The notes beneath the pieces are model-generated. The model searched no databases and had not been told where the DNA came from. It worked only from the letters and a program-made list of their open reading frames with translations. From the NCBI GenBank assembly GCA_973895155.1, contig OZ316891.1, positions 8,185,875 to 8,249,874 on the forward strand: a DNA stretch of 64,000 bases, read 5' to 3'. A program made the translations under genes and the position numbers. The DNA comes from Marsupella aquatica. Taxonomy: Eukaryota > Plantae > Marchantiophyta. Shown in pieces: positions 30,881-55,844 of the stretch; the stretch's first letter is position 1; the number at the start of each line of letters is the position of its first letter.

Positions 30881-32872
<1,992 letters not shown>

Positions 32873-34244: not shown

Positions 34245-34317
34245 GCACCCGTGGCCTAATGGATAAGGCATCTGACTTCTAATCAGGGGATTGTGGGTTC
34301 GAGTCCCACCGGGTGTG
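34245..34317 (+). tRNA. tRNA-Arg(UCU), nuclear, intronless
   Basis: 73-nt cloverleaf GCACCCG...CGGGTGTG; A-box TGGCCTAATGG; anticodon loop CT-TCT-AA; B-box GTTCGAGTCC; TTTT terminator follows. Confidence 0.93.
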
Positions 34318-35312
34318 CTTTTACATCCCTGAACTGTTCCTTGGTCGTTTACTCCCGAGACACCATACTTTCTATTCTCGCTCCTTTTGTTTTGTAGTAC
34401 TCGCTCCCTCCTTTGCGGTCTTCAGCATTATATAACTAAGTGGAAAGTCTATGAATATCATCATCGTAGGGGTGCGTTTCAAAGCACAAATTCTTCTATT
34501 CGAACAGTGGGTGAAGTTACTGTAGCTTATTCGAGTATAGTTGGTTTAATAGGGCACTATGGGGCAGTTGAGCTTATTTGCCTGGCTCCTCAAAGTTGGC
34601 AAGGGAATGATGAGCTGGTCCTCAACGTCTGAAGCATAAATAAAGAGTGAATTTACATTGTTTGCAGGCTAGAGAAACCCTGTACAGATTGTTCATAGGT
34701 CGAAGAACCTCCACCTAATTGGTGACATACAATTCCAACCAGATGATGAGGGTCCAAATTGTTTCTCAATGTCAAAAAGTAAACATGTCTCCTGAGTCTA
34801 CGGTGTTTGGAATTCTCCATCCTCCTTGCTCTTGCAGACTCCCATGTCCTGAGGTCCTGGTTAAATATCTTTGACCAGATGCTTGTGAACGAGGCAGAAT
34901 TCGCAATGTGCAGGTAGTACAATAGCAAGCCCAATATAAATAGATGTTTGGATCATTTCACGATGATGGGCTTTGTATCAGTGCAGCTTGTTTAAATGAC
35001 AAATGTAGAGCAATGCCAGGCAGGAGGGGATGGGAACTGTTGTTTGACCTGAAGATAACTCTAGCAAGATAAGTGCACCTTTCATCGTTTGTAAGGAGTT
35101 CCAGATGCAAAGAAAGCGAGAGTACACTGGAGCGAAGGTCGACACATAATGTAGAAGACTAGGGACGGTTGAGGAATTGGGTCTCCTCTAACTGATTTAC
35201 TGTTGATCTACTAAAATATATGTTCCAATACCTGCTCTGTTAGGAGGTTGAAATCCACTGGAAATCCCAGAGCACTGTTTATGGTCGATCAAGTTTTGGA
35301 GCTACAGAAAGT

Positions 35313-35615
35313 TTAGTTGCCCCTTTCTGAGGCTCAGCTTCTCCCTTGGGACTGGCTCCACGGTTTTTTAGCACATAGACCTTCAGTCCTCTAGGGTGTG
35401 GCCCTTTTGGTGGGCTCCCCTTTTCTTTGTATGTTGACTATTTGAATGAAATTCACTTGTTTTTTTTGAGGCAAAAGGTGGGCTCCCCTTTTCTTTGTAT
35501 GTTGACTATTTGAATGGAATTCACTTGGTTTTTTTGAGGCAAAAGGTGGGCTCCCCTTTTCTTTGTATGTGACTATTTGAATGGAATTCACTTAGTTTTT
35601 TTGAGGCAAAAAAAG
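35313..35615 (+). mobile_element. Short retroposed-type insertion with three ~63-bp tandem units and an A-rich end
   Basis: Flanked by the 20-bp direct repeat GTTTTGGAGCTACAGAAAGT (35293-35312 and 35616-35635). Paralogous sites near 41372 and 47179 are empty. Confidence 0.75.
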
Positions 35616-36967
35616 GTTTTGGAGCTACAGAAAGTACCCCAACGACCATCAACGGCTCGACTCTATCTTTTCTTTTCCAGAGCATGTCTCCAAGTATTCT
35701 GTTTGTTATTGATTTTCTCACCACCTCCTGACGTGTCTGGTCTAGCAAAAAGGATAGCTTTGTACATTATGTACTCAAATTGTGACAGAATTTCTGAGGT
35801 CCACACATCCCTATTTTCAACTTCGTTCCGTGACATGTAAAACATTCCTCCTACTCAGTACCCTGAATTTATCGAGTCGTCACATGTCTCCATATGTCAA
35901 GGCCAATTCATACGTTTGAGGTGGTTTCTTGGATCATGCCGTCAACTCCAACATCTTTTCTCTTTCTAAAGGTCAGGTAGACCACTAAGTTTTCACGAGT
36001 CCATCTTCGTGTGCTTTGCAGTAATCGGTCAGAATAAGATTGATTCAAAGTAGGATGGATTGACGCCCTTCACTCCCTGTAAAATATCCTTAAAACCAAG
36101 CGTACATATTGCCGAAACAATCTTATTTTCGCCTTCAGTAAAGATTACTGTCAAGCTATGCATATTGCTTTTGTTTCTCCTTGCATATATTTAAGGACAT
36201 TGACTTATGGACAAGTTTTCTGTACATCAAATTGCCAAACTCATATACTTTCCTCCGGCCTCTCACCGTGTCTAACGTGACTGATTTGCATCAGATACAT
36301 GTTTCAACTTCAGAACCATCCTGATTAAGAAGTACATTCTTCCTTCGAAAATGTCTTACAGAAGGCATAAATTAGTGCCTGAATTACATCAGGCCGTCTT
36401 GCAAGAGTTGACTAAGTACAAGAGTTCGTCTCCTGTAACTATTACAGCAGTAATGGAAACCGTTCCAGTAATGTAGTTTCTTTCTAAAAACAAAGATACT
36501 CGAACCCACGTCAAGGAGCTGCAGGTTATAACACCCCGTGTATACAAGTCCCCATCAGTTTAAACCCGTATCCTGGAAATAGAAAACTCTCGAGATAACA
36601 AGTTATGCCGTACGATAAACCACATCCAACAATTTCCTCCCGAAGGCCATGTATGATTGGTAAATTGCAGGCACCGTCCCCAAGGATGCATTGACAAGCT
36701 TAAGTCAGAGCTTTCGCGATTACAGTTCCTTCCAGACAACCTTCAACTCCTAGGTCACTCCGTGTTCCTTCCCAGTTCAATTTGCGCTCCAACCCTAAGG
36801 TCAAAATCCCCTGATCTCCACTATAGGCATCATCGGTTCGAAAGTTTTTCCCATCTCACTCCCCCTCACCTCAGGCTTACTTGATGTGGAGGATAATTTG
36901 GGTCAGCCTTCTGTCTTCTCTGAAAATTCTCGGTGACGACAGAAAGATCACTGCCTAATCCATCAAT

Positions 36968-37951
36968 CTAGCCCTCACTATATTCGTTGACATGCCCATG
37001 ATATCTGTCACCCCTCACGGCATGGACATCCAAGATAGCGTTGATGTCCTTCGCCTCCTCATCTGTAAGTGTGATATCGTTGGTATTTTCGTTCACTCTA
37101 GCCTCAGTAGTAGCCCCAGGAATTGGAATAATGACGGGCATCCCCGGCTTCTCGCTGAGATACTTCACCCACGCAAGGGCCAGCTGCGGCAACGTGCACC
37201 CCTTCTTCTTTGCGATCGCCTCCACCATCTCAACCAACTTCATATTCTTCTCCAGAACATCAGGTTGATACTTGGGATAGTGACGCTCTTCTGGGGAAAG
37301 ATCCTCGTACTTTTTAACCTGCCCCGTCAGCGCACCACGACCGAGTGGTGAGTACGCCACAAACGGAATCCCGAGTTCAGCACAAGTGCTGAGAACACCA
37401 TTCTCGATGTTGTCGATGGCCCAGAGCGACAGCTCTCCTTCCACAGCAGCAATCGGAGCCACGGCAGCTGCTCTCCGAATTGTCTTGGCACTCACTTCGC
37501 TCAGGCCGATAGCGCCAATCTTCCCCTCATCAACCAGCTTCTTCAAAGCGCCCACTGTCACCTCAACTGGAGTCTTCGGATCCACGCGCGCACACTCGAA
37601 AATGTCTATCGCCTTCGTTCCGTCCAAGACCCTCAAACACTCTTCCACGCTCGCCCGGACATTCTCCTCACTCCCATTCGGCTTCAACCCGGCGCCCATA
37701 CCACCCTTGATGCTCAACACCACCTTTTCGGCCGCTTCGGGATGCTCCTTGAAGTAAGCATTCAGCACATGGCAGGAATTCCGATCCGGAGGCCCGTAGA
37801 ACTCTCCCCCATTCCAGCAATTGGCGCCTCTCTTCAACGAGGCCGTCATGGCCGCGAAGGCCTGCTCTAGCGATGGGGGCTTCTCCCGCGCTGTCAGCCC
37901 CATCAGGCCGTAGCCTGTGTGGCCTACTGGTTTCTCGACGAGAGACGGCAT
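36968..37951 (-). CDS. Aldo-keto reductase, fungal pyridoxal-reductase-like, copy 1 (327 aa, intronless)
   Basis: Motifs GYGLMGLT, WNGGEFYG, VVLSIKGG, IDIFECARVD, GKIGAIGLSE, AYSPLGRG, QLALAWV and IIPIPGATT..RV.EN; ATG at 37951. Confidence 0.9.
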   Translation of the reverse strand: MPSLVEKPVGHTGYGLMGLTAREKPPSLEQAFAAMTASLKRGANCWNGGEFYGPPDRNSCHVLNAYFKEHPEAAEKVVLSIKGGMGAGLKPNGSEENVRASVEECLRVLDGTKAIDIFECARVDPKTPVEVTVGALKKLVDEGKIGAIGLSEVSAKTIRRAAAVAPIAAVEGELSLWAIDNIENGVLSTCAELGIPFVAYSPLGRGALTGQVKKYEDLSPEERHYPKYQPDVLEKNMKLVEMVEAIAKKKGCTLPQLALAWVKYLSEKPGMPVIIPIPGATTEARVNENTNDITLTDEEAKDINAILDVHAVRGDRYHGHVNEYSEG

Positions 37952-37974
37952 TTTCAATTCGGTGCTGCTCGTGA

Positions 37975-38270
37975 ATGTTCAACCGATCATCGACGATTTG
38001 TGAACTCTATTTCCTCTAGTGGGAGCTCGACCTTCCCTTGACGGCATGCACTTTACACAACAGCGATCGTTCCTCAGTGGAGTGGAAAGCAAAGTGCCAA
38101 TTGGTTACACAAAACCAATCAACCGATCATTGACGACTTGTGAACTCTATTTCCTCTAATGGGAGCTCGACCTTCCTTTGACTACATGCGCTTTAGACAA
38201 CAGCGATCAATTTCCTCAGTGGAGTGGAAAGCAAAGTGCGAATTGGTTCCCCAAACCAATCAATCTCCTC
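37975..38270. repeat. About 140-bp tandem duplication in the upstream region of AKR copy 1
   Basis: AACCGATCAT.GACGA.TTGTGAACTCTATTTCCTCTA.TGGGAGCTCGACC recurs at 37981 and 38121. Confidence 0.75.
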
Positions 38271-41200
38271 ACTCGAGAGGGAATCGAGGTATTGGAAAGG
38301 ACCAGACCTCTGAATGAAGTGGGATGCTTCGCAAGTAGATTGCGCGCTCCTTTTAATAGCCCATCAAATATACCTGAGTGCTGCTCTATCCACGAGATTC
38401 CGAAGCAATCCCCCTCTGAGGCTGTGACCTTCCTCAGGGGAATCTTGGAATCGACCCGAGAGTGTTACATGTCAGTGAATGACACCCTCCAGCTTGTTTT
38501 TTACGGATTTACTCTTTCGCCATAGTGGCGACTGTAAATTTTGTGAAGTTGAAGATGCTCAAAAGATTCACTATTCAATTATTGTACCTAGGTCAAATCT
38601 CCCTAGATTTAAGGCTGACAGTTAGATTCTGGCTAATGGGGCCTGGGATTAGGTGGAACACTCGCTAATTAGACAACAAAATAGTGGGGAAAGATGTTTA
38701 GGGAGGTGGAATTTAGCAAATTTTGGCCACTAAAAAAACACTGCATCCCTCTATACCATGATTAGTCTGGTTATTTTCTATAAATTAATGAGTGCACAGG
38801 GTATATTACCACATTTTGATGTGTGATTACAGGCAGAGCAGCGGGACGAGGACGTGAAACTGATTTTATATACGGTCCTGGCCCCAGTGCTAAAGAGATG
38901 AGTCTCAGGAAGTTATATATGAAATTTTGTTGTGCCCGCCAGAAAGAGGTAGGCTTGGAAAGTCATTTATGGAATTAGTAGCCTGATGCCCATGCCTTGC
39001 ACAAAAGATAACTTGTGGAAATTTTTAGTGTTGATAGTTTTAGTGTTAATAGAGTGTCAATAACTTATTAACTATGAAAATTTTCAGTTTCAGCTGGAAA
39101 GGGATGACTCTTTGGAACGTTATTAATGGAATTATTAGCCCATGTGTTGCACAAAAGATGTTGAGGAGAAGTCACACAGAAATGATTGTGACCGTTTGGT
39201 CGTTGCAGGTCAAGCTAAAAAATAAATGTGAGTGAGACAAGGAACTTGTTTAGAAATCTTATGTGTCCTTGTGGTAAAGTTGTCATTGGAGCTATGATGT
39301 TGTTACCATACTTGTGTGTTATTAAGATTGTTACAATTGGGTAACTTAGTGTAAGTATCTTTCCTCTCTCCCTCCTTTTTCTTGTTGCCCAAAAATGTCA
39401 AGCAAGGTAAAGAATTGCAAGGGAGACAAAGAAGTCTTATTCCAACTGGGCCAGTTGTGCAATCACATTTGCGATTGCAAAATTTGGGTTAGGTGCTTGT
39501 TGTGAAAATGTCATCAATTCAACCATATGAAAATATTGTTTCCGGGGAGGGCAAATGCGAGGGAGTGGGGACACAATACTGGCCACCTCATAGCAGAGTC
39601 CAAGCACAATCCACTGACAGGGAAATCTTTTATGTTTCAAAGAATTAAATATTTTAAAATATTTCATTTATTATTGAATATTTATATTCAAAGGTATTTT
39701 ATTTATCTTGAATATTTTTCCAATTCTCAATTTCAATCATTTCAATAGTTTATAACTTGTGAACCATTAAAGGCACACTATCTCTACTCACAAATGAAAA
39801 GTCACAAAGGTTTCCTTCTCTCGATACAACAAGTTTTGAAAGAGCCAAAAACAATGTTCAATCAAGATAGACATAAATATTTTTGTACCAACTGAACGAA
39901 GAGAAATAACTTAGTTCAAGCAATTAGTTCAATTAGATTTTTGCCAACTTTAATTACCAAGATTAGTTACTGGACCACGTACTTATGTAATTTTTTAATG
40001 CTTGTAAGGAACCTAATTCCCCTTATATTTTAGTTTTAAGAATAATGCATACAGAGCAAAGTCAGTGTTAATACATATCCTCTTATTCTAGTTGTTTTTT
40101 AGTTGAAAAAATAATGCATACACTGCAAAGTCAGTGTTTACATCAAAATGCTCAGACCTTTCTAGAATCTTCAGTATTGAATTAGTTTGAGGCTTCCCCA
40201 GTAGTGCCCACCTTAGTTTTTCTATCAGGCAACACCCGATTGTATTCTCACCATCTGATCACCAAAGAGTGTTCCTAGCTCTCCGTTATGTCTGCTGGAC
40301 CAAGTTGTAGTCTCCCCTTCTTTTGCTAGGACAACGGCAGTAAATGGAACGACTGTATCAAGAGAGATATACTTAGTGGACCTCCAAATGCAACTTTTTC
40401 TCTTATTGGACCAAAAGTTGCACACGCCCTCCCAGTGGACCCCAACGTTTAGATTCACTCCCAATGGACCCCGGGCCCACTCCAACAAGCATGTTCTTCT
40501 GAAACACCTTACCGCACAGTTCAGGTCCACTACGTACCCTGTGGACACCGTGGCTGGTCATGTGTAGTAGACAGTCGATCCACAAGCGTCGTAGCCCTGG
40601 CCGCAATTGAGTGCCACAGCACCATGGCTTCCTAGTTTTTGTGAATACAATATGACTATTGTATTCAAAATTACAATAGCCGCAATCTAGAACAATCGGA
40701 AGAATAGAGCATTGTCAATGTATTCACTCTACGTATGCAATGACACGTTGCGATTCTAGGTTGCGCTTGCTTTGCTAGTTCATTGTTAGGGATGAGGGCA
40801 CGATAATTTGCGTGCGTATGCCTTCTCATTGGCGAGGGTTTAGGATTTTAGGTGGCAGTCGATAGGAATGGTGATCGAGAGAGGATGATTGTTTTAGGGA
40901 TTTGACTATTGGAGACCAGGCAGCTCGTAGGCAGATCAAAGGCCTGTCGGGCTGAAGGAAGACTGCAAAATGAATTGGGACGGCCTGTCGGGCAATTTGG
41001 AGTGAGTGCAGAGAGATTCAAGGAGATCAAAATTACGAACCAACTTTCGGTAGTAACTCACCCTCATCCCACCTCTGCTCAGATATCAAGTTTTCAGCAC
41101 AGCTCAGTACTACTGGTTTGGCAAAGCACAGCTACTACTGTTGGCCTTGGTGAGTGTGACTAGAAGAGACATCATCTGAACCCGGGGCTGGCTACGAGGA

Positions 41201-42171
41201 GAAATTCCATTCCATAATTCTCCACAACTGCGCAAATCATCGCCCGGCACAGCCTTGAGTTCCACGATGACTTTTGTGGAACTCCCTACATCATTCTGTA
41301 TACATCAGTTTGGCTCTGTTGGCAGGTTGAAATCCACTCGAAATCATAGCGCATTGTTTGTGTTCGATCAAGTTTTGGAGGTACAGAGCGTACTTCAACA
41401 ATGATCGAAGGAAAGTAAGTCCATCTTTCGTCTTCCAGACCACGTCTCCAAGAACTTGCAGGTTTGTCAGTGACTTTATCACTACCTCCTGACTTGTTTG
41501 GTCTTGGCACAAACGATAGCGTTCTACATTGTGGACCCAAAATTCTGACCGAAATCCTCAGTAAGATCCAAATATCCTCAGGCCATTTTCAACTTGATCC
41601 CGGGACCTGCAAAATACTACTCCTACTCCTACTCCACAATCTGAAGAGGTTATCCTTACATAAATTTATCGAGTCAAGGCCAATGCATACGTCTCGTAAG
41701 TTTCTTCCATCATTCCATAGATTCCCACATGATTGTGCTCTTTCTAGAAGTCAGGTTGACCAAAAAATTTACAGAAGTCCATCTTCGTTGACTTGCTTTA
41801 ACCGCTCAGGATGAGATCCTGTGACAAGAATGATTAGAACTCGGATGAATTTACGGCATTCCTCTTCAGATCGACATATATGTTAATTTCAAGTTCAAAG
41901 CCATCCCTGTTAAGTAGTACATTCTCCTTCGAAAATCTCTTACAGAAGGTAAATGTTACAAGATTACATCAGGCCGTGTTGGAAGAGTTGACTGAGTACA
42001 CGAGTTCGTCGCTTATAATTATATAGTAGTACTGGAAACCAGTTTCCCATCCCACTCCCCCCTGACCTCTGGCTTAATTCGTTGATCTGGAGAATATTTG
42101 GGTCAGTTCTCTTTATTCTCTGGAACCGCCTTCTCAGTGACGACAGAAACATCAGAGCCTAATCCATCAAT

Positions 42172-43155
42172 CTAGCCCTCACTGTATTGTTGGACATGCC
42201 CATGATATCTGTCACCCCTCACGGCATGGACATCCAAGATCGCGTCAATGTCCTTTGCCTCCTCATCTGTAAGTGTGATATCGTTGGTGTTTTCGATCAC
42301 TCTAGCTTCCGTAGTAGCCCCAGGAATTGGAATTATGACGGGCATCCCCGGCTTCTCGCTGAGATACTTCACCCACGCGAGTGCAAGCTGCGGCAACGTG
42401 CACCCCTTCTTCTTTGCGATCGCCTCCACCAGCTCAACCAACTTCATATTCTTCTCCAGAACATCAGGTTGATACTTGGGATAGTCACGCGCTTGTGCGG
42501 GAAGATCCTCGTACTTCTTAATCGTCCCCGTCAGCGCACCACGACCGAGTGGTGAGTACGCCACAAACGGAATCCCGAGTTCAGCACAAGTGCTGAGAAC
42601 ATCATTCTCCATGTTGTCGATGGACCAGAGCGACAGCTCCCCTTCCACAGCAGCAATCGGAGCCACGGCAGCTGCTCTCCGAATTGTCTTGGCACTCACT
42701 TCGCTCAGGCCGATAGCGCCAATTTTCCTCTCATCAACCAGCTTCTTCAAAGCGCCCACTGTCACCTCAACTGGAGTTTGCGGATCCACGCGAGCACACT
42801 GGAAAATGTCTATCGCCTTCGTTCCGTCCAAGACCCTCAAACACTCCTCCACGCTCGCCCGGACATTCTCCTCACTCCCATTCGGCTTCAACCCGGCGCC
42901 CATACCACCCTTGATACTCAACACCACCTTTTCGGCCGCTTCGGGATGCTGCTTGAAGTAAGCATTAAGCACATGGCAGGAATTCCGATCCGGAGGCCCG
43001 TAGAACTCTCCCCCATTCCAGCAATTGGCGCCTCTCTTCAACGCGGCCGTCATGGCCGCGAAGGCCTGTTCTAGCGATGGGGGCTTCTCCCGCGCTGTCA
43101 GGCCCAGCAGGCCGTAGCCTGTGTGGCCTACGGATTTCCCGACCAGAGACGGCAT
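42172..43155 (-). CDS. Aldo-keto reductase, fungal pyridoxal-reductase-like, copy 2 (327 aa, intronless)
   Basis: Close paralog of copy 1 with an intact 984-bp ORF; ATG at 43155. Confidence 0.9.
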   Translation of the reverse strand: MPSLVGKSVGHTGYGLLGLTAREKPPSLEQAFAAMTAALKRGANCWNGGEFYGPPDRNSCHVLNAYFKQHPEAAEKVVLSIKGGMGAGLKPNGSEENVRASVEECLRVLDGTKAIDIFQCARVDPQTPVEVTVGALKKLVDERKIGAIGLSEVSAKTIRRAAAVAPIAAVEGELSLWSIDNMENDVLSTCAELGIPFVAYSPLGRGALTGTIKKYEDLPAQARDYPKYQPDVLEKNMKLVELVEAIAKKKGCTLPQLALAWVKYLSEKPGMPVIIPIPGATTEARVIENTNDITLTDEEAKDIDAILDVHAVRGDRYHGHVQQYSEG

Positions 43156-45825
43156 CCTCAATTCGGTGCTGCTCGTGAATGCTCAACCGAACATCGACGA
43201 TTTGTGAACTCTATTTCCTCTAGTGGGAGCTCAACCTTCCTTGAAGGCATGCAATTTCCACAACAGAGATCACTTTCCACAGCAGGGATCAATTTACTCC
43301 GTGGAGTGGAAAGCAAACTGCCGATTGGTTCGACAAGATGACTCAATCTCCTCACTCGAGAGGGAATCGAGTTATTGAAAAGGACATCTCTGGATGCAGT
43401 GGAATGCTTGGCAACTAGATTGCGCGCTCCTTTAATACTCCATCTTCGAATTTGAAAGTAAAAATATACGTGAGTGCTACTCTATCCACGATTCCGAAGC
43501 AATTCCCCTGTGACCTTCGTCAGGGGAATGTTGGAATCGACTCGAGTGTTTCCCCATCATGCAAGCCGATGCTGATTCAGCGAGACGATGAACAAGAAAC
43601 TCATTTAATATGGGTGTCCTGGCCCGAGTGCGAACGGGATGAGTACTTAGAAAGTCATTTGTGAAATTCTCTAGTGCGCGTTGGAAAGAGATGAGTTTGT
43701 GGAATGTTATTAATCTACAACTATGATAAGGGATCCCATTTTTTTTTGTGCTTCATCTCAATACAAAAAAACTCCTGGGCGGGAGAGATACACAATCATT
43801 GGATTTGTTTGGCTGTTTTTTCTGACCATTGATGGAAGAAATGGACACCCCTGGCGCATATGTGCTTCCCCATGCTGTCCCATAAATGCCCCGGGCCGAC
43901 TCCCTATGGCGGGCCCTCCTTGCGCCGTGCAATGCACGGGCATAGGGCTGGTAATGTATAAAATCACTAGCCCGGTGCCTTTTTGCATGACAACTAGAGA
44001 GGCAAATATCTCTAGGTGAGGCAAATATCTCTAGGTGAGGCAAAGATTCCAGGTAGAAGGAGAGATAACAATGTTTTGAAGTGAAACAAAAATAGTTGTG
44101 GCCATGATGTGGAGCTAAGGCAAAGAAAATGCAGGTGAGACAAAGAAGTTGTTGATATATGTATTATGCCCTTGCGATAATGGTGTCATTGTGGCCATGT
44201 TGTTGTCATGACCATAGTATCAATGTTAGAGTGTTCCATAAATGTCTTTGCAATTGGGTAACTTATTCAAACTGGGTTTCCCCTCTCCCTTCTCTTTCTT
44301 GCTACACAAAAATGTACAGGTAAAGCAAAGAATTGCAAGTGAGACAAAGAAATGTTATTGTTCCCACTGGGTCATCTATACAGTAACCATTGTGATCGTA
44401 AATTACAGAAATCATGATTTTTGGTTAGTGTCAAAAGTTTCATATGAAGCCCAGTTTTGGTGGGGTTTGTGTTAAATCACAACTGCCCTTATGTAAAGGG
44501 GAGGTGTCCAATGCTCCCTTTTTCCATATTCCTCTCACTTCTGTCCTCTAATGTTTGCTCCACAATTATGGGAAGAATTTATTATTAATAGTGAAATTTG
44601 GATCCTGAGGGTAACCTGTAACTCTTGAAGAAGCACCTGTGGTTTAAAAGCACTATACGGTTTAAAAGCACTATGCCACAGGGAAGTTTCCAACCTTGCA
44701 CTTCCACCTCCCCAGATGCACTACCAGAACACCCATAGCCTGCTAGACTAACCAATGCCTAATTCCTGGTATTGAACTTGATATCGTTGTATATTGTTTT
44801 GGCAGCAACTGGTGGGCAGCAAGCTAGGACAGCCCTAAATGACTTCCATGGATTGGTCGCCCCAAATGTGTTTCCCCACCATGGAGGGCGGGACGCCCAG
44901 GAGCTTATACGGTGGTGTAGGTCCAGGAGGCACAATCCAGCTCTCACAATTCCTTTGCTATTCAGGGGGCCTCCAATGAGAGAAAAAGAGAGAGCATAGT
45001 TTCTGTTTTTGTATTTAGACCTAGAGACAAAATACAACGCAAGACTGTGGACGATACTGACAGTCTTGGAACATAATTCACACTCACCTGAATACTTTGA
45101 AATAAATTTTCAATTTCTTGGACAATTGACCCAAAACATCATGCATGTTATTTTGTGATAACAAAACGTACATATCCTTCATGTTAAATTTGCAAAAGCT
45201 CCTAACAAATGAAGTATCTTTCTCCACCTAATCAAAATAATTATTTATTTTCATTATTCATTTTTCAAGTAACATTTTATAACTTGTGAACCATTGAAGG
45301 CACAACAGGTTTCCTTCTCTGCTTACAACAAGTTTTGAAAGAGCAAAAAGCAATGTTCAATCAATTAGAGAGAACAAACATTTTTGTACCAACGGAATGA
45401 AGAGAAATAAATTAGTTCAAGCACCCCTTGGTTATGTAATTTTTGCTTCTTTAAAATAAAAGCTATTGATAAGGTGTGTATTTTTTGGGTGACTTGTACC
45501 TCCAGGTATAATCTGTTCCACTTCTGTTAGCTTACTTATTTCCTTCTCGGAAACTTTTCCCTCTCCCAATGTTTTCAATATTACTTTTCTCCAGTGGATA
45601 TTTTCAATTTTTGTCTCTTCATTGAATATTAGAATACTTCAAAATCTTTGCCAACATATATACCAAGATTAGTTACTGGACCCCTACCTATGTATACTTT
45701 AATGCTTGTAAGGAACCTAGTACATATTCTCTTATTCCCCTTGTTTTCTAGTTTTAAAAATAATTCTTACACTGCACAGTTAGTGTTTACATCAAAATGC
45801 TCAGCACATATATAATAAGCTAATT

Positions 45826-45896
45826 GCAGGTATAGTTTAATGGTAAAATTACTCCTTGCCACGGAGAAGACGTGGGTTCAATTCCCGCTACTTGAG
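45826..45896 (+). pseudogene. Degenerate organelle-type tRNA-Gly(GCC), resembling plastid trnG-GCC
   Basis: GCAGGTATAGTTTAATGGTAAAA...CTCCTTGCCACGGAG...GGGTTCAATTCCCGCTAC; GCC anticodon; mismatch in the acceptor stem. Confidence 0.6.
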
Positions 45897-47948
45897 GGTC
45901 TTTGTCGGTCCGAAGGACCTAAAGGCACAATTGACGCATATATGATAGATGGTCTGGGGAAGGCACTAGGATCCTATTTGAACATGAGATGACAACTTCT
46001 CCAATGAAAATAGGGACAGCAGGAAGCTCAGCAAGCTCAGCAGGTTACCTATATTATATTGCAGGTGGTTTCTACAACCTTTGCTAATCTATTTCCCAAT
46101 GACGGAAGAGGAATTACTTAAGGTCAACACACTCTATCACCAATAAGAATCAGTGTAAAGTCTGAACATGTGCACTTATCAAATAGTGCAAACCACATAT
46201 AAATGCAAGGCACTAGCTTATTCGTGAGAGGGTCTCTTAGGAAGACTTCACTGTACATGTTTGGATTGTTTCAGGATGATGTACTTTGCCTCCATGCAGC
46301 TTGTTTAGATGAAAAATGTAGAGCAAATGCCAGGTTGGGGATGGGAACTGTTGATTTACAGGAAGGTAATCTTTAGCAAGATAATTGCACCTTTAATCTT
46401 TTGTAAGAACTACCTGATTTGTACAGTTGTGGAGAATCATGGAATGCAATTATGGGATTAGATTTGGAGAGTAACACGACAATGTTGAACACTGCGGAGA
46501 GTCGAGAAAATGGGTCTCCTCTAACTGATCTACTGTTGTATTGAAGCTTATGGTCTTGTGACATAATAACAACAGATATGCTATTAGTACAGGTTCTACT
46601 ATTTCGAAACACATCGAGCATTGTTTTAGCACAGCAGTCCAGTCCACATGAAAAGATTCGTTCATACTCTTACGAAAGCCTACATGCTCTGTAGTGCCCA
46701 CTTCAGTTTTTCTATCAGACAACAGCAGATTGTATTCTCACCACCATCTGATCGACAGATAATCTTCCTAGCTCCCCGTTATGTCTGCTGCACGACGTTC
46801 GTTTGCTACGACAACGGATGTCAATGGAATGATCAGTATCACAACACTGCGGACCAACTTTCAATAGTCGCTCACCCTTATCCCACCTCTGCTCTGATAT
46901 CAAGTTTTCTGCACAGCTACTACTGTTGGCAATAGTGAGTACGTGTGATTCGACGAAACCTAATCTGAACACGGACTGGCGACGAGGAGAAAGTCCCCTG
47001 GCTCCATAATTCTCCACAACTGTGTGCAAAATCATTGCTCAGCACAGCCTAGAGTACCAATGATGACACGTAATCAGCTGTAGAGTGGAGCTCCCTACAT
47101 CATTCTGTATACATGAGTTTGGCTCTGTGGCAGGTTGAATCCACTCGAAATCCTAGAGCATTGTTTGTGTTCGATCAAGTTTTGGAGGTATAGAGCGTAC
47201 TCCAACAATGATCGAAGGAAACAATGATCGAAGTCTCCAAGAACTTGCAGCTTTGTCAGTGAATTGATCACTACCTCCTGACTTGTCTGGTCTTAGCACA
47301 AAGGATAACATTCTACATTGATTGTGAACTCAAAGTTGGTACAGAATTCCTCAGGAAAGTCCAAATATCCCCATCTTCCACTTGATTCCGGGACATGGAA
47401 AGTACTACTCCTACTGAGCAACAAATTTATCCTTGCACGAATTTATCGAGTCAAGGCCAATGCCTTCGTGTGGTAAGTTTCTTCCATCATTCCATGGATT
47501 CCCACATGATTGTGCTTTTTCTAGAAGTCAGGTTGACCAAGAAATCCATCTTCGTTGACTTGCTTTAACCGCACAAGATGAGATCCGGTGACAGATTGAT
47601 TGGAACTCGGATCAATTTACGGCATTCCCCTTCAGATCGTCATATATGTTTCGAGTTATAAGCCATCCCTATTAAAAAGTACATTCTCCTTCGAAATTCT
47701 CTTACAGAAGGTAAGTGTTACAAGATTACATCAGGCCGTGTTGGTAGAGGTTACTGAGTATTCGAGTTCGTCGCTTATAACTATTACTGTAGTACTGGAA
47801 ACCATTCCAGTAACGTAGTTTCTTTCCCATCTCACTCCCGCCTGACCTCTGGCTTACTTGATCTGGAGAATCATTTGGGTCAGTTCTCTTTATTCTCTGA
47901 AACCGCCTTCTCAGTGACGACAGAAGGATCACAGCCCAATCCATCAAT

Positions 47949-48933
47949 CTAGCCCTCACTATATTGATGGGCATAAGCAGGATATCTATCACCCCTCACG
48001 GCATGGACATCCAAGATAGCGTCAATGTCCTTCGCCTCCTCATCTGTAAGTGTGATATCGTTGGTGTTTTCATTCACTCTAGCCTCCGTAGTAGCCCCAG
48101 GAATTGGAATAATGACGGGCATCCCCGGCTTCTCGCTGAGATACTTCACCCACGCGAGGGCCAGCTGCGGCAACGTGCACCCCTTCTTCTTTGCGATCGA
48201 CTCGACCAGCTCAACCAACTTAAGAGTTTTGTCCAGAACATCAGGGTGAAACTTGGGAACGTGACGCGCTTGTGCGGGAAGATCCTCGTACTTCTTAATC
48301 GTCCCCGTCAGCGCACCACGACCGAGGGGTGAGTACGCCACAAACGGAATCCCGAGTTCAGCACAAGTGCTGAGAACATCGTTCTCCATGTTGTCGATGG
48401 ACCAGATCGACAGCTCCCCTTCCACCGCAGCAATCGGAGCCACGGCAGCTGCTCTCCGAATTGTCTTGGCACTCACTTCGCTCAGGCCGATACCGCCAAT
48501 CTTCCCCTCATCAACCAGCTTCTTCAAAGCGGCCACTGTCACCTCAATTGGAGTCTTCGGATCCACGCGTCCGCACTCGAAAATGTCTATCGTCTTCGTT
48601 CCGTCCAAGACCCTCAAACACTCCTCCACGCTCGCCCGGACACTCCTCACTCCCATCCGGCACCTTCCCCGAGCGCGCCCCACCACCCTTGATGCTCAGC
48701 ACCACCTTTTCGGCCGCTTCGGGATGCTCCTTGAAGTAAGCATTCAGCACATGGCAGGAATTCCGATCCGGAGGCCCGTAGAACTCTCCCCCATTCCAAC
48801 AATTGGCGCCTCTCTTCAACGAGGCCGTCATGGCTGCGAAGGCCTGCTCTAGCGATGGGGGATTCTCTCGCCAGGTCAGGCCCATCAGGCCATAGCCTGT
48901 GTGGCCCACTGGTTTCCCCACAAGAGACGGCAT
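47949..48933 (-). pseudogene. Aldo-keto reductase copy 3, frameshifted by a 2-bp deletion near 48643
   Basis: 985-bp span against 984 bp in copies 1 and 2; GSEE-(AA lost)-VRAS; N- and C-terminal halves lie in different ORFs; retains GLTWR. Confidence 0.85.
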
Positions 48934-49647
48934 CTTCAATTCTGTGCTACTCGTGAATGTCCAACCGATCGTCGACGATTTGTGAAATCTATTTCCTTTT
49001 GTGGGAGCTCGTCCTTCAGTTGACAAGATGCAATTTCGACTGCAGCGAACAATTTCCTCCAACTACAATAGTGGAACGCGAAGTGGGGATTGGGTCGACA
49101 AGAGCAATCAATCTACTCGTTCAAGACGAAATTGGAATTTTGAGCGGTAAGACAGGACCACATTTCGGGATGAAGGGGACAGCTTCACAACCAAATGGGG
49201 GCACGTTTTATACCCCAATTGCGCTTTTGAGAGTACAGTGAACCGCGGATAAGTGCATCGTGAATAAGTGCAGTCCGTGACTTAGTGCAGGCCTTTCGTG
49301 TTGTCCCCTAATATTAGTGGCATTTACTTTGTAAATGCACCAAAAAAATGCACTTTGCATATGTGGAAGCCTACCCTCACTAAATGACAATACTTAATTG
49401 CATTCCGTCTATAAGAGTACATATGCATTTACCAGTTAGTGGATATAGTGCACAAGATGCTTTTATTGATAAGAGGTTGAAAGAAATAGAGACATATGCT
49501 TAGTAGACCCTTCTGGAAAAAGTTTGCTTAATCAACCCCCTCAATACTTTTCTCCAATCTGGACCGTTGATGGACCTTTCGATCTCAGATCTGGACTGTT
49601 GATGGACCTTTCGATCTCAGATCTGGACCGTTGATAGACCTCAGGGG

Positions 49648-52600
49648 TGTTAGGATTTACTCTTAGGTCTAGAGTTACGACTGTACCGTAGTTAAGGCTA
49701 ACCTTAGTTGCAGACTTGGTTAGGTTAGTCATGCTGTGCACACTCTATAAGCAAGCAGTGTTTGCTTGGAGAGATGGAACTCAGGCTCATTCTTACGGAG
49801 CTAGTTGAGAGATAGAGAGAGTTTGTGCTGTGGATGCTTGGTATGGCCGGTCGGCCTAGAGTGCAGTAAAGTTCTTGTGTGTTCCCGTGGACGTAGTCTC
49901 ATGTGGAGGTGAACCACGTATCTCTCTGTGTCGAGTCTTGTGCGTTGGATGGTTCATGGGCTTGTCGTTGCGATTGTCGTCGATGCTCAACAATTGGTAT
50001 CAGAGCATGCCTGGGAGGTGACGAGGTCTTTTTTGTGACAATTTTCCAGCGTTCATTGTCGGTGTTACATTCGGAGTTTTGTCGCATGAAACTTGAATGT
50101 GTGTGGCTGAACGGATACATTAGTGAGAGGGCTTTCTAACGGTGGTTAGAACTTGGTGATCGGTATCCGTGGTGCGGAGGAATCGAAGTTTGCGTCGATC
50201 TGGAGTTTTTTCGTGTTCCACGGTATTTTCGGGGGAGAAACCAGAGATCGTTTTTTCAACGGTTTGAGTTGTGCGGTGCGGGAGGCGTCGCATGTTATAG
50301 CTCATGTTGGAGGTTAGAGCGAGCTATTCATTTTGGTAGTTGAGTTGTTGTCGAATGGTTACCGAGTGCGTCATGACGAGTGAAGGAGACGTTCAGATTT
50401 TTTCACAGGCTATGGAGCTTATTTTCATCTGAACCGGGTTACTCATCGTCACGTCCATCTTGGAGGAAGGAACGCAAAGTGCTATGGCTCAATGTTTTGA
50501 TCGCGTCAAGACGGTCATTTTGAGTCCGGGATTGGCACTTGACGCGAAGTGAGTGTGACATGACGGAAGATTTTTTCTCTGCTGAGCTCGCAGATTGTAC
50601 CTGTGCAATTCGGCAACATTTCCCCGTCGGCAATCATCATTTTTACTCATGGAATTGGCAGCCGCAAGCAACGTTGGATGTTGGCAAATTGTGTTTCCTG
50701 CGGCAACTTTGCGCACCGTAGAGAGGTGAGGTGCGGCGGCGACCTAGGGCACAAGGAAAACGACAAAGTTAGTGAACAGTAACTTTGTCTGGGAATTGCG
50801 GCGGGATTTTCGTAGCAATAGGGTTTCAGAGGGCGACTTAAAGGGAGCCTCGCTCCAAGGGCGACCCAGAGTGACCAGGGGGAGCCTCGTGGACTCCTAG
50901 CCTCGTGGGCTACGCGGCGGTGATTAGTTTTGAGTTTTTTGAGAAATTGTGAAAAACATCATTTTTTCGTGATTTTCTCATATGAGTGATTCAGAGGAAA
51001 TTTTTGAAGACGTGGAACTTGAAGCACGAGGATCACCGCGGCGGTTTGAGGTGGAGAGAGAGGAGCAGGAGGAAGAGCACGTGACACCGGTACCATCACC
51101 GTGCGACGAGTGGTGGAGGAAGCTGTTCTACTACCGGAGCTCACGGTAGTGCCAAAGAAGAAGATGGGTACATTCAAGCTTGGGGGACCCAAGTATGAAG
51201 TGACAAAGTATGATGGGCGCTCTGACTACTTGCTCTAGGAGAAGCAGGTGAAGGGAGTGCTCTATGCTTCAGGGATGGGCCAACTGCTAAGCCCTCGTGA
51301 AGACGATGTTGATGAGAAATAATGGGACTGCATGCAGAAGCAGGGAGTGTGGTGTGTTACACTCTATCTCATGCCTCCCATCATCAAGTAGTTGGGTGCA
51401 CATAAGGACTGCATGTCCTTATTTTCGGAATTGCAGAGCAAGTATCACCGCAAGGAGTTGTCGAACCGGCTCTATACTTCCTACAAACTGATGAGTTTCA
51501 GGATGAAGGAATCCGGTACGAAGTTGCAGGACCATGTGGATGCTTTCAACGACATGGTCGTTGACTTGGAAAACCTTGGGGAGACTTTGAATGATGAGAC
51601 GAAGGCTCTGCAACTTCTCAGTTCATTGCCTCCATCTTACCAATCCCTATCACGGGTGTTGTTGCATCGTGATAGGGATACCATTTCATACAATGATGTG
51701 GTAAGTTCTCTGCTTAGTGATGATCTTCAGCAGAAGATGCACATCACGTCACAGCCTTCATCCTCTGGTGCTGCCCTCAATGTTAACCGTGGGAGGAATA
51801 TGCAGAGACCAACTGGGGACAATAGAACCCAGTTTAGATCTAAATCTAGATCTAAGTCCAAAGGCAAATCCCCTCAGAGAAGGCAGGTGACATGTTGGAA
51901 GTGCAACCAAGTTGGACACTTCAAGCGAGATTGTAAGGAAAAGGCAGCTGAATCTTCATCGGCAAATGTGGCTAGGGCTAATGGAGATGTTGATTTACTC
52001 AATGATGAGTATGTATTATGAAGCCAGGGGTATGCCCTTTGCACGTCATCTAGGAGAGCAGATGATGTGTGGATTCTTGATTGTGCTTGCTCTTTTTATA
52101 TTTGTTACATTCGAGAGTTTTTCAGTTCTTACTCTGTTTCAAACGGTTCAGTTCTGATGGGAAATGATCACTCCTGTCAAATTGAGGGTATTGGGTCTGT
52201 GAAGATTCAAATGTTTGATGGCACTGTGCGCACAGTGTCCGGAGTCAGGTATGTACCTGGCATACGTAAGAATCTGATTTCACTGGGTGTGTTGGATTCA
52301 AATGGTCATCAATGGAGCGTTATTGATGGTGAACTTCAAGTCAGGTCGGGAGAGACAGTGATCTTGAAGGGGAGCAGACAGAAGATTTGTATGTGTTGTA
52401 GGGCAATACTGTATGTGGAGAGGCCAATGTAACCAAGTCTCACGAGGAGATGACTCATCTGTGGCATTCACGGCTAGGCCACATGAGTGAGAAGGGTTTG
52501 GCTATCTTACTGAAGAATGGACTCATTTCTAATTTGCAATCTTGTAAATTAGAGTTCTATGAGCATTGCATTCTTGGAAAGCAACATCATCGTGCTTTCG

Positions 52601-55600
52601 ATGTTGGAACACATCGTTCCAAGGCGGTTCTTGAGTACATACATAGTGACGTGTGGGGTCCATCCCCGACTCCCTCACACTCTGGAAAGTTATACAATGT
52701 ATCATTTATTGATGATTACTCAAGATTTATGTGGATTTATTTCATGACGCATAAGTCTGATGTCTTATCCATTTTTAAGAAGTGGAAGGCCCAAATGGAG
52801 AATCAGACTGGAAACACGGTCAAGTGTTTGGATACAAGGGTGAAGAGTCTGAGGTCAGACAATGGCGGGGAGTACACTTCAGTGGAATTTAAAGAGTATT
52901 GTTCAGAACAGGGATAACTCGCCATCTCACCATAGTTTATATTCCGCAGCAGAATGGTGTCGCTGAGAGGCTCAATCAGACACTATTGCTATTGGAGCGG
53001 TCACGGAGTATGTTGAGCCAATCAAGTTTACCACAAGAATTTTGGGCAGAAGCTGTCAATACTGCAACTTATTTGGTAAATCTTTCTCCTTCTAGTGCTA
53101 TCAATTTTAAAACGCCATTTGAGATGCGCTATAAGCGGCAAGCAGACTATCATGGCTTGGTAGTTTTTGGAAGTGATGCATATGCTCTCACACCGAAGCA
53201 GAATAGGACCAAGTTGGATCCTACATCCAAGAAATGTGTTTTTCTTGGGTACCAGAGTGGTGTGAAAGCCTATAGGCTATGGGATCCTATTGCCTGTAAG
53301 CTCGTTGTCAGTAGGGATATTTCCTTCAATGAATCCAGATTATTGAGGAGGGGGAGAATACTCAGGTCTCCCGTACTGACAAAGGAAAATCTCCTATCCT
53401 GGATCTCATTGAGGGGGAGATTGGTCATGAGGTGCATGATCGGAGAGAAGGAGTTGCTCCAATTATGGAGCTGGTTCCTGTGCCAGAGGAACCAGAGGAG
53501 TTTGTTGATGCTGGTGAGCAGCAAGTGGATGCTGCTGAGCTTCAAATTGTACCAGCTAACGCAGATCAACCAGAGTCATCAGCTAGAAGAACATTTGGTC
53601 GCACTGTACGCGCTCCACCAAGGTATGGAGAGTGGGTTGATTCATCTTAGTTGCAAGAGGAGGATTTTGTTACTGATGATGAGGGTGATGCGTTGATACT
53701 AGAAGAAGGAGAACCTTCTTCATTTCATGAGGCAAGTGCTTCTAAGGAGAAGCAGGAGTAGATTGCAGCAATACAAACGGAGATGTAATCACTAAAGGAC
53801 AACAAAAGTTGGGAGCTTGTCAAGCTGCCTGAGGGACAGCAAGTGCGGGAGCAAGTGGTGGACAGCAAGTGGATATACAAGCTAAAGGATCAGTCCACAG
53901 GAGGTGGATCGAAGGTCTACAAGGCTAGGTTGGTAGCCAAGGGATTCACACATGAAAAAGGTGTGGATTACAATGAGGTCTTCTCACCAGTTGCTAAGTA
54001 CTCAACAATACGGCTATTGTGTGTGCTTGTTGTAATGTTTGGTCTGCTGCTAGATCAGATGGATGTTGTCACAGTCTTCCTCTATGGCACCTTGGAAGAG
54101 GTGATCTTCATGAGACAGCCGCTAGGTTTTGTGAAGAAAGGGCAAGAGGATTTGGTTTGCAGATTGCTGAGATCCTTGTACGGGTTGAAGCAGTCACCAA
54201 GACAGTGGAATAAGCGGTTTGATGATTGGATTCGTGCGCAAGGCTTTCATAGGAGTGTGTTTGACCCTTGTGTGTATCTTAAACCGGTGAAGAATGTTGT
54301 CTTCGGGTTCATTGTTTTAGTACTTTATGTGGATGACATGCTTATTGCGGCCAAGGATAGGTCTGAGATTGTTAAGCTCAAGGCACTGCTTAGTGCAGAG
54401 TTTAAGATGAAGGACTTAGGGCTAGCTAAGAGGATTTTGGGTATGGAGATCACTAGGGACTTGGAGGCTGGTAAGCTATGGTTGACGCAGAGCAGTTATG
54501 CGAGGAAGGTAATTGCAAGGTTCAACATGGGGGATAGTAAGCCAGTGAGTACCCCATTGGCTCCACACTTCAAGTTGTCATCAGCTTTTTGTCCTACGGA
54601 TGAGACAGAGAAGGGGCTGATGTCAAAGGTTCCTTATGACAAGGCAATGGGGAGTCTCATGTATTTGATGACTTGCACTAGACCTGATCTTGCCATGGCT
54701 ATGGGCAAGGTGAGCAAGTACATGTCGAATCCAGGGAAGGTACACTGGGAAGCAGTGAAGTGGATTATTCGGTACTTGAAGGGTACCGTGGATCATGGTC
54801 TATTGTTTGATGCACATGCTGATAATGCTAGATATTTGATGGACTATGTAGATACTGACTATGCATAGGATCTGGATCGGAGGAGGTCAACAACAGGTTA
54901 TGTGTTCACATTAGGAGGTGGATGCATAAGTTGGAGGTCTACTCTACAGAAGTGTATTGCTCAGTCTACTACAGAAGCGGAGTATGTTGCAGTAGCGAAA
55001 GCAGCAAAGGAAGCGATTTGGTTGGATAGACTTATCACTGAGATGGGATTGCCACAGGGGAATGTGAAGCTCCATTGTGATAGTCAGAGTGCGCTCCATC
55101 TTGCTGTGAACCAGGTAATGGACAGCAGAGTTAAGCACATCGACGTCAGGTACCATTTTATCAGGGAGGCTGTGTCTGATAATCAGTTTGAGCTAGTCAA
55201 GATTGACGGTAAACTCAACCCGACTGACGCTTTTACCAAAAGTGATTCCTTTGGAGAGTTTTTCTAGACATCGTGATGCGTTGCAGGTTTTGCAATTGCC
55301 TCACAAGTAGGGTTACTTAACATTTGTGTAGATACTGAGATATGCTCTTGCTCATTCCTTGTATAGGCTACGGCTTAGTCTGGTCTACTCTCGTATAAAG
55401 AGGGAAAAACCAGTTTGGTTTTTCTTTCCAGAACTTCCCGCTGAGCAATCATATAGGTTGCAGTCTTTACCCTCCCTAGACCAGAGTCAAGGGGGAGATT
55501 GTTAGGATTTACTCTTAGGTCTAGAGTTACGACTGTACCGTAGTTAAGGCTAACCTTAGTTGCAGACTTGGTTAGGTTAGTCATGTTGTGCACACTCTAT

Positions 55601-55844
55601 AAGCAAGTAGTGTTTGCTTGGAGAGATGGAACTCAGGCTCATTCTTACAGAGCTAGTTGAGAGATAGAGAGAGCTTGTGCTGTGGGTGCTTGGTATGGCC
55701 GGTCGGCCTAGAGTGCAGTAAAGCTCTTGTGTGTTCCCGTGGACGTAGCCTCATGTGGAGGTGAACCACGTATCTCTCTGTGTCGACTCTTGTGCGTTGG
55801 ATGGTTCATGGGCTTGCCGTTGCGATTGTCGTCGATGCTCAACA
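49648..55844 (+). mobile_element. Full-length Ty1/copia LTR retrotransposon (copia-2)
   Basis: 345-bp LTRs at 49648-49992 and 55500-55844 (about 9 differences by eye); TSD AGGGG; PBS TGGTATCAGAGC at 49995-50006; PPT AGGGGGAGAT before the 3' LTR. Confidence 0.95.
51164..55310 (+). pseudogene. Copia-2 gag-pol with several stops and frameshifts
   Basis: Motifs CWKCNQVGHFKRDC, WILDCACS, LWHSRLGH, HSDVWGP, LRSDNGGEY, LYVDDM and KHIDVRYHF. Confidence 0.92.

Follow-up and report, generated by a model that had tools for sequence, protein, structure and literature searches.

Transfers of fungal genes into bryophytes are covered by a survey of 123 bryophyte genomes, and in the parts of that survey considered here 1,809 transferred families are given for 49 streptophytes (PMC12513842). 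Little has been established about the way foreign DNA becomes integrated when genes pass between kingdoms. In section 20 of a 2025 review, transferred genes are described as "invariably" non-syntenic, and a retained context is said to invalidate a transfer (PMC12448838). Gene targeting in Physcomitrella frequently results in insertion adjacent to the homologous target, according to the portion of the report drawn on here (PMC6521618).

The window analysed here, a stretch of 64,000 nucleotides from the liverwort Marsupella aquatica, carries three copies of an aldo-keto reductase (AKR) gene near SAHH, and pairs strong signs of transfer with a donor-side neighbour that is kept as the native orthologue. 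The absence of shared context expected of a transferred gene is not seen, as SAHH neighbours the AKR in both fungi and liverworts. The locus is read as an exception to the synteny criterion because that neighbour is the native orthologue and not co-transferred DNA. In a literature search of mostly titles and abstract openings, no paper was found on this AKR in liverworts, nor on cross-kingdom synteny of donor neighbours, and the supplementary tables of the bryophyte survey (PMC12513842) may list the family.

Layout of the locus

The AKR copies lie convergent to a three-exon SAHH gene, with 4.1 kb between the SAHH end at 32872 and copy 1 (Table 1). The first-pass annotation, which had placed the copies about 4 kb from a plant-type SAHH, duplicated together with their flanks and surrounded by plant transposable elements, is confirmed on each of these points, with Copia, CACTA and DDE remnants flanking the array on both sides. 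The SAHH protein is 96% identical to that of Calypogeia fissa, 89-93% to those of Marchantia and Riccia, and 60-64% to fungal proteins. Among 81 protein columns that distinguish plant from fungal SAHH, 77 are plant-type, three are of other type and one, isolated, is fungal-type. On the SAHH side, a decayed spacer delimits the amplified unit. The Copia element upstream of copy 3 is present at very high copy number in each of the four sequencing runs. The 52 long open frames of the window revealed no further host genes and no additional gene within the repeat unit; four of them matched families, all of transposons.

Table 1. Coordinates of features in the window
Feature	Position	Strand	Details
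SAHH, native plant type, 485 aa	30881..32872	+	three exons (30881-31591, 31935-32471, 32663-32872), GT-AG introns
tRNA-Arg(TCT)	34245..34318	+	between SAHH and AKR array; outside duplicated unit
Decayed spacer copy	34941..36484		70-87% patches against spacer downstream of copies 2 and 3 (self-BLAST)
AKR8/PLR-like copy 1, intact, intronless, 327 aa	36968..37951	-	Pfam PF00248; W21A
Duplicated block: spacer, copy 2 and upstream region	41028..43460		83% to 46842-49235 over 2.5 kb
AKR8/PLR-like copy 2, intact, intronless, 327 aa	42172..43155	-	Pfam PF00248; W21A and E119Q
AKR8/PLR-like copy 3, 985 nt, frameshifted	47949..48933	-	W21 and 328-codon length kept; A121G
Copia LTR retrotransposon, LTRs 97% alike	49648..55845	+	0.7 kb upstream of copy 3

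The reductase copies and their fungal relatives

The window proteins belong to the AKR superfamily by domain and fold. The two intact copies match Pfam PF00248 with E-values of 9e-65 and 4e-61, the AlphaFold model of copy 1 is an alpha/beta barrel with a mean pLDDT of 96.5, and the Foldseek matches listed are all AKR-fold proteins. The canonical Asp-Tyr-Lys-His tetrad, the columns of which are presumed to be catalytic, is incomplete, with Tyr52 and Lys82 kept, Asn47 in place of Asp and Ala/Gly121 in place of His.

AKR family membership is set at no less than 40% identity. The window proteins are 43.7-44.4% identical to the Schizosaccharomyces pombe pyridoxal reductase Plr1 (O14295), and fall with it in a 45-row clade supported at 100/100 against AKR13-like rows, which assigns them to AKR8. 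Tyr52, Lys82 and Ala121 are common to Plr1 and the window proteins, and the change from His to Ala at column 121 fits AKR8 because Plr1 also has Ala there. Plr1 has Asp where the window proteins have Asn47, a residue that is also found in 27 of 27 named filamentous ascomycetes. Identity to named ascomycete proteins reaches 61%, and the nearest Atlas cluster (score 0.97) is an ascomycete pyridoxine 4-dehydrogenase, a name that comes from automatic annotation, as on the other fungal matches.

Perakine reductase, a native plant AKR13, is the nearest solved structure both by sequence (169 bits) and by fold (Foldseek E 1e-22, 34% identity), but it keeps the Asp and His that are Asn and Ala in the window proteins. 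AKR13-like proteins form the outgroup of the tree, far from the window copies. The window motifs are WNGGEFYG and FECAR-type rather than the DT(A/S)D.YG and YYQHR of plant AKR13, and grouping with AKR13-like rows was rejected (p-AU 0.043). The set of fungal-type motifs given by the first-pass annotation was a composite: copy 3 alone matches MPSLVGK...GLMGLTWR exactly, and copy 1 alone matches IDIFECAR.

The three copies had been described as intronless AKR genes, which holds, copies 1 and 2 being intact; copy 3 carries a frameshift in the window haplotype, where 2 nt are lost near 48642. At this site the contigs of runs X2 and X3 are identical to the window, with 30 letters on the short side, one below the bridging rule, and in a copy-3-type contig of run X4 the two letters are present. 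The high GC content noted earlier is no foreign signature, the AKR copies having a GC3 of 0.64-0.65 against 0.665 for the native SAHH. The copies evolve under purifying selection, with dN/dS of 0.32-0.44 between copies and 0.08-0.09 between the copies and L001, a locus considered below.

The copies are predicted to be NADPH-dependent aldehyde reductases, with conversion of pyridoxal to pyridoxine as the predicted ancestral reaction, and activity on pyridoxal is somewhat more probable than not. Vitamin B6 salvage or aldehyde detoxification, put forward by the first-pass annotation, is a candidate role. Columns W21, E119 and A121, invariant in the 27 named ascomycetes, carry W21A, E119Q and A121G in single window copies. 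These changes lie at predicted pocket residues, through which the copies may have diverged in substrate range. A single old paralogue shared by the W21A copies was rejected as a whole-gene clade (p-AU 0.003), and local gene conversion is still compatible with the data.

Of 7,999 candidates scored, the best 120 comprise four C. fissa clusters, 43 named ascomycetes and 73 sequences without a species name. The C. fissa clusters hold 10 proteins of 80-83% identity, followed by environmental and ascomycete proteins. The plant distribution is patchy, since no named plant besides C. fissa occurred among these 120, and the searched collection contains Marchantia, Riccia, Sphagnum and Physcomitrium proteins. 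Two unnamed Logan proteins of 73-77% identity could come from further liverworts.

In a maximum-likelihood tree of 50 rows (IQ-TREE), with five AKR13-like proteins, one of them named as red-algal, as the outgroup and no named land-plant AKR among the rows, the window copies are monophyletic with those of C. fissa. The liverwort clade (100/98) lies inside a 14-row environmental clade (100/99), which is sister to Eurotiales (96/86) within filamentous ascomycetes (99/95). Constraining the liverwort copies to fall outside the fungal group cost 65 lnL, a modest rejection (p-AU 0.043), and a placement of the entire 14-row clade outside the named fungi was not rejected in the AU test (p 0.097). A bacterial origin was discarded, with plasmid matches reaching 41% at most. 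Two of the checks proposed by the first-pass annotation, a phylogeny and the distribution in related plants, bear out its reading of a fungus-to-plant transfer followed by local amplification: the copies nest in filamentous-ascomycete proteins near Eurotiales, in a tree free of named land-plant AKRs, and C. fissa carries the same SAHH-linked arrays. The AKR gene very probably passed horizontally from a fungus to a plant.

SAHH linkage and placement of the foreign gene

C. fissa holds two five-copy AKR arrays, each followed by SAHH at the next accession step, an adjacency taken from accession order rather than coordinates; SAHH and its array lie on equal-sized contigs. The array appears to have been amplified separately in each liverwort lineage, to at least 3 and 10 copies.

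SAHH had served in the first-pass annotation solely as an argument against contamination, and it is also the gene's neighbour in fungi. Locus L001, the closest relative with readable flanks (73% amino acid identity), has an intronless AKR, and it is called a fungal locus because its intron-containing SAHH is 92% identical to Eurotiales and the fungal snoRNA Afu_191 follows its AKR. Fungal SAHH lies upstream of the AKR at 1.15 kb in L001 and ~1 kb in L003, a second fungal locus, in tandem in both and convergent in the window, a comparison of orientation that covers these three loci and leaves the nearest relative, P0007, and C. fissa outside. In five of six named fungi checked, the reductase is adjacent to SAHH or no more than five genes away: Cirrosporium and Peltula have the two genes at consecutive accessions, and in two Thermoascus species and Paecilomyces lecythidis the accession numbers differ by 3-5. 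The two Coniosporium genes are on contigs of differing size. The linkage is not general in fungi, being seen in 2 of 62 metagenome loci, or 2 of the 33 with at least 2 kb upstream. Over the 16 nt past the AKR stop codon, 10-12 positions agree with L001, which is only a hint of co-carried flanks because the stretch was picked after the match was noticed.

The neighbour of the cargo in fungal loci has its homologue beside the cargo in the window, and a rough count gives a probability of 0.7-2.7 x 10^-4 per transfer that a gene inserted at random would end up next to an orthologue of its former neighbour. Homology-guided placement of the foreign DNA beside the native SAHH is the preferred reading, at about even odds. 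Its fuller form, tentatively put a little below even, is a natural cross-kingdom gene targeting in which fungal DNA with SAHH and the pyridoxal reductase was anchored on the liverwort SAHH and the fungal order was rebuilt. A fungal AKR8 gene would have entered the nucleus of a leafy-liverwort ancestor on DNA also bearing a fungal SAHH, and the likeness of fungal and plant SAHH would have anchored it beside the native gene, either by one-ended homology-directed insertion or, at a later time, by ectopic recombination of the foreign SAHH with the native one. The fungal SAHH would afterwards have been lost, and the orientation may have changed by inversion after insertion, unless the donor was already inverted. 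In bacteria, homology-facilitated illegitimate recombination leaves foreign DNA beside an intact homologous target. Plant and fungal SAHH DNA share only patches of 69-73% and no exact match beyond 17 nt, far under the usual need of homologous recombination.

Neither a hybrid junction nor a donor tract was found in SAHH across the 81 diagnostic columns at the protein level, where a plant-fungus chimera was rejected on the same column counts, and no fungal SAHH remnant was found in the window. A 28% match at 43209-43421 was dismissed as chance, since the query frame is mostly fungal intron. No Afu_191 remnant was found in the window by Rfam at E up to 10, and a 10-nt match behind copy 3 was discarded on the same ground.

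The transfer may be real and the landing beside SAHH accidental, non-homologous or transposon-aided, which would make the match with the fungal neighbour a coincidence. This is a genuine though lesser possibility, favoured by the missing recombination scar and fungal SAHH remnant, the opposite orientation and the transposon-rich region. Bryophyte transfers are also numerous and LTR-associated in the parts of the survey considered (PMC12513842), so that a rare coincidence can happen somewhere. Against it stand odds of ~1 in 10,000 per event and the course of the analysis, since the window was chosen for its transfer and the synteny was noticed later, in the first flanked locus examined. Even if the placement came about by chance, one fungal transfer is common to two liverworts and was separately amplified.

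It is improbable that the gene first inserted at another site, subsequently moved to SAHH and was kept there by selection for shared regulation, converging with the fungal order, as a proposed coupling of vitamin B6 and homocysteine/methyl-cycle metabolism might favour. The linkage persists in several distant fungi and two liverworts and is therefore a hint of constraint, but of the 33 fungal loci that have 2 kb or more of upstream sequence 31 are without it, a rare move to exactly the SAHH site is still required, and the two genes share no promoter because they are convergent.

Vertical inheritance of an ancient eukaryotic AKR beside SAHH, in ancestral gene order and with loss in other plants, is scarcely credible: a shared neighbourhood is usually taken as its sign, as put in section 20 of the review (PMC12448838), but the AKR is 73% identical to a fungus when the slow-evolving adjacent SAHH is only 60-64% identical to fungi, its nesting near Eurotiales inside filamentous ascomycetes contradicts such descent, and C. 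fissa is its only other named plant in the best 120 of 7,999.

Equally remote is fungal contaminant DNA mis-joined to the plant scaffold: no short-read contig joins SAHH with copy 1 (run X1 has a gap at 35439-35540) and X1 depth is 14-17 over the array spacers against 23 for the SAHH contig, but the spacers occur with high-copy repeats in all four runs from two studies, X3 depth is 27-30 over them against 39 near SAHH, an X1 contig that begins inside copy 3 (48829) reaches 49537, within the zone of very high-copy repeats that precedes the LTR, and the separately assembled C. fissa shows the same linkage twice with copies monophyletic with those of the window. Physical integration among host genes, which the first-pass annotation had argued for, is thus supported by the four runs and the C. 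fissa accession adjacency.

Comparison with described transfers and gene targeting

If homology-guided placement is true, foreign eukaryotic DNA would find landing pads in conserved housekeeping genes, and filters based on synteny would discard real transfers. The locus gives a concrete test, namely how frequently, among fungal genes of bryophytes, the gene beside the recipient site is orthologous to the donor's neighbour. Parallel changes at predicted pocket residues make the copies a candidate source of novel reductase chemistry among leafy liverworts.

In the parts of the reports considered, targeted one-end gene insertion in Physcomitrella likewise leaves foreign DNA beside an intact homologous target (PMC6521618). 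Laboratory targeting uses near-identical homology, in contrast to the proposed anchor, which is ~70% identical across kingdoms, with convergent orientation. The plant host and the tandem array set the window copies apart from fungal AKR8 genes. Among known fungus-to-bryophyte transfers as far as described in the portions considered (PMC12454661, PMC12513842), with the data tables of the survey outside the comparison, no insertion next to a native orthologue of the donor gene's neighbour was found. The NAS metallophore synthase of mosses (PMC12454661) and the transfers of the bryophyte survey (PMC12513842), as presented in the same portions, likewise combine a fungal donor with a lineage-restricted recipient, and share with the window few introns and LTR-rich surroundings.

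The AKR array in plant DNA

Besides S-adenosylhomocysteine hydrolase (SAHH), the nameable content of the window comprises the tandem AKR8/pyridoxal-reductase-like (AKR) genes, two tRNA genes and remains of copia, CACTA and DDE transposons. The first-pass annotation had described intronless copies duplicated together with their flanks, which holds for the duplication (41028-43460 and 46842-49235 share 83% identity, and degraded spacer copies extend back as far as 34941), although copy 3 is broken by its 2-nt loss. The GC richness also noted there is not diagnostic, as GC3 of the AKR copies (0.64-0.65) resembles that of native SAHH (0.665) and exceeds that of the transposon ORFs (0.41-0.44), so composition is no marker of foreignness. 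A 140-nt tandem duplication (37979-38263, 90%), present upstream of copy 1 only, may change its promoter. A short SET-domain-like ORF (18865-19257, E 2e-5) precedes the CACTA-type transposon and is possibly element cargo.

Features of the window and of two fungal metagenome loci
Feature	Sequence	Coordinates	Strand	Remarks
SAHH	window	30881-32872	+	three exons; sole clear host protein gene
AKR copy 1	window	36968-37951	-	intact intronless ORF, 327 codons
AKR copy 2	window	42172-43155	-	intact intronless ORF, 327 codons
AKR copy 3	window	47949-48933		one extra codon; 2-nt loss near 48642
tRNA-Gly(GCC)	window	45825-45897		Rfam 53 bits (weaker score)
CACTA-type transposon	window	18865-22675		Transposase_21, DUF4218, DUF4216; span includes the preceding SET-domain-like ORF
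Afu_191 C/D-box snoRNA	L001	3391-3485	opposite to AKR	just downstream of AKR
Afu_191 C/D-box snoRNA	L003	11070-11168	opposite to AKR	just downstream of AKR

The region is present as contigs in four public sequencing runs from two studies (X1-X4, X1 possibly coming from the source sample of the window), all four of which hold contigs identical to the array spacers, and one X1 contig runs from within copy 3 to 49537, reaching the repeat zone ahead of the LTR. No contig in the four runs bridges SAHH and copy 1; those of X1 break off at 35438 and restart at 35541, where a short tandem repeat lies. Depth over the array spacers, which hold high-copy repeats, was 27-30 against 39 in intergenic DNA near SAHH in X3, and 14-17 against 23 near SAHH in X1. 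Independent support for the array as real plant DNA comes from a second liverwort, Calypogeia fissa, whose ten AKR proteins have accessions in two series of five (CAM6122399-407 and CAM6124650-658, step 2), each followed at the next step by SAHH (CAM6122409 and CAM6124660, contigs of matching lengths), an adjacency read from accession order rather than coordinates.

The copy 3 frameshift is matched without difference by X2 and X3 contigs (short side 30 letters) and the two lost letters are retained in a copy-3-type contig of X4, so that it likely represents a segregating null allele. One contig each in X3 (depth 35) and X4 (depth 99) omits 1,795 nt within 36273-38069, all of copy 1 included, with 31 other letters in the gap (short side 30 letters), which hints that a haplotype or homoeologue without copy 1 exists. 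At least one additional AKR copy lies outside the window, since a 7,175-nt X1 contig terminates in the 3' end of an AKR, carrying 21 differences from 47907-48129, and has a flank absent from the window. X3 and X4 display two sequence types at many sites of 30000-32520 together with long contigs identical to the window, and SAHH exon depth in X3 is about twice the intergenic depth; these runs would represent a mixed sample or a polyploid that includes the window genome. The tRNA-Gly(GCC), presumably an organelle-derived insert by its likeness, has a loose end that in X1 and X4 leads to a different locus.

Probable fungal ancestry of the AKR genes

Among the best 120 matches of 7,999 candidates scored, 43 are named ascomycetes (up to 61% identity), four are C. 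fissa clusters and 73 lack a species name, seven of these at 64-77%; no other named plant occurs in the 120, the collection including Marchantia, Riccia, Sphagnum and Physcomitrium. Bacterial plasmid matches reach at most 41%, and the top solved relative is the plant AKR13 perakine reductase (169 bits).

Trees from FastTree (94 rows) and IQ-TREE under LG+G4 (50 of those rows, 44 being dropped for run time), whose rows include no named land-plant AKR, were concordant in topology. By IQ-TREE, the window copies and the C. fissa copies each form a clade (both 100/99) and are sisters at 100/98, grouping with P0007 (98/93) inside a 14-row environmental clade (100/99) that is sister to Talaromyces, Thermoascus and Paecilomyces (96/86). 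This whole grouping falls within filamentous ascomycetes (99/95), with the pyridoxal reductase Plr1 of Schizosaccharomyces pombe further out. A tree constrained to group the liverwort copies with the AKR13-like outgroup was 65 lnL worse (p-AU 0.043); one with the whole 14-row clade shifted there was 32 lnL worse (p-AU 0.097) and was not rejected. The fungus-to-plant transfer proposed earlier is thus upheld with high confidence by the nesting of the liverwort copies and by C. fissa being the only named plant in the best 120. P0005 and P0007, relatives without a species name, are 73-77% identical to the window copies, P0007 being sister to the liverwort clade; they are either the closest fungal relatives or additional liverwort carriers.

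The metagenome locus L001, with a 73% identical, intronless AKR, is the only 14-row-clade member with readable flanks. It is fungal because its SAHH has introns and is 92% identical to Eurotiales proteins, and because the fungal snoRNA Afu_191 lies downstream of AKR (59.5 bits, cut-off 60; 64.2 bits in a second locus, L003). As the L001 AKR is intronless, intron absence was in place on the fungal side already and an mRNA intermediate is unnecessary.

Constraint and likely function

The AKR model is a confident barrel (pLDDT 96.5) with the AKR fold by Foldseek. Tyr52 and Lys82 are conserved in the window AKRs; at the column where His is usual they have Ala121, like Plr1 (44% identity), and at the Asp column Asn47, like all 27 named filamentous ascomycetes, the roles of these tetrad columns being presumed. 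Nei-Gojobori dN/dS was 0.32-0.44 among copies and 0.08-0.09 against L001, by which the copies are constrained, yet relaxed since duplication.

Sites variable in both the window and C. fissa copies number 22 of 326 columns against 9 expected (p 2e-6), an excess to be read with loops being more variable in any case. Three columns invariant in 27 fungi are altered in both liverworts, namely W21A (window 2/3, C. fissa 2/10), E119Q (1/3, 3/10) and A121G (1/3, 2/10); E119 and A121 lie at or beside catalytic columns, and W21 in a loop that we assume to line the pocket. W21A would have arisen in parallel or spread by local conversion, since its carriers as a single clade were ruled out (p-AU 0.003). 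Judging from sequence, the window proteins are likely NADPH-dependent aldehyde reductases with pyridoxal as ancestral substrate and a substrate range now diversifying.

SAHH as neighbour on both sides of the probable transfer

The AKR neighbour is SAHH on the donor side and native SAHH in the two liverworts. Window SAHH is 96% identical to that of C. fissa, 89-93% to Marchantia/Riccia and 88% to moss SAHH, with fungal SAHH at 60-64%, by which the host is probably a leafy liverwort akin to C. fissa yet separate from it. The diagnostic columns of window SAHH are plant-type in 77 of 81, other in three and fungal-type only at the isolated V357, which also occurs in C. fissa. In L001, SAHH ends ~1.15 kb upstream of AKR on the same strand, and this order recurs in L003 (59%, AKR with one intron) with a distance of ~0.9 kb, SAHH-AKR-snoRNA being a conserved block in these fungi. 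For the six named fungi with both genes among the matches listed, the two accessions are consecutive in Cirrosporium and Peltula, 3 apart in Thermoascus thermophilus, 4 in T. crustaceus and 5 in Paecilomyces lecythidis, and on contigs of differing lengths in Coniosporium. The linkage is not general in fungi: two of the 62 metagenome loci have it, or two of the 33 with an upstream flank of 2 kb or more, and many of these loci come from more distant relatives.

A fungal fragment with SAHH and AKR would have entered a liverwort cell. Gene targeting in Physcomitrella leaves the incoming DNA beside its target in about half of events, 21% in one experiment, one end having recombined and the other having been end-joined (PMC6521618). 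A one-ended insertion anchored in SAHH would carry AKR to its present site; alternatively, foreign and native SAHH would later have recombined ectopically. The redundant fungal SAHH would then have decayed, and an inversion, or a donor with AKR already inverted, would also be required, the genes being convergent in the window and in tandem in both L001 and L003. At the DNA level, plant and fungal SAHH are alike in patches of 69-73%, the longest identical run being 17 bases. A search of the window for remnants of fungal SAHH or the snoRNA gave none, a neutral remnant not being expected at a dS of ~2 to L001. That SAHH homology guided AKR to its place is an evenly balanced proposition, and natural homology-guided insertion across kingdoms a slightly more tentative one. 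Landing beside SAHH by chance is less probable; such a random event is roughly estimated at 0.7-2.7 x 10^-4 (assuming two donor neighbours with two slots apiece and 15,000-30,000 genes). Selection for co-location is improbable; the pairing in both liverworts speaks for it and its rarity among the metagenome loci against it.

A mostly abstract-level literature search returned nothing on this AKR gene in liverworts, though the tables of PMC12513842 may include the family, nor on donor-neighbour synteny across kingdoms. A 2025 review holds transferred genes to be 'invariably' non-syntenic and retained context to 'invalidate' transfer (PMC12448838). That bryophytes carry genes of fungal origin is well established (PMC12513842, PMC12454661); the AKR transfer adds to these, and the donor's neighbour retained as its native orthologue is a new variant.
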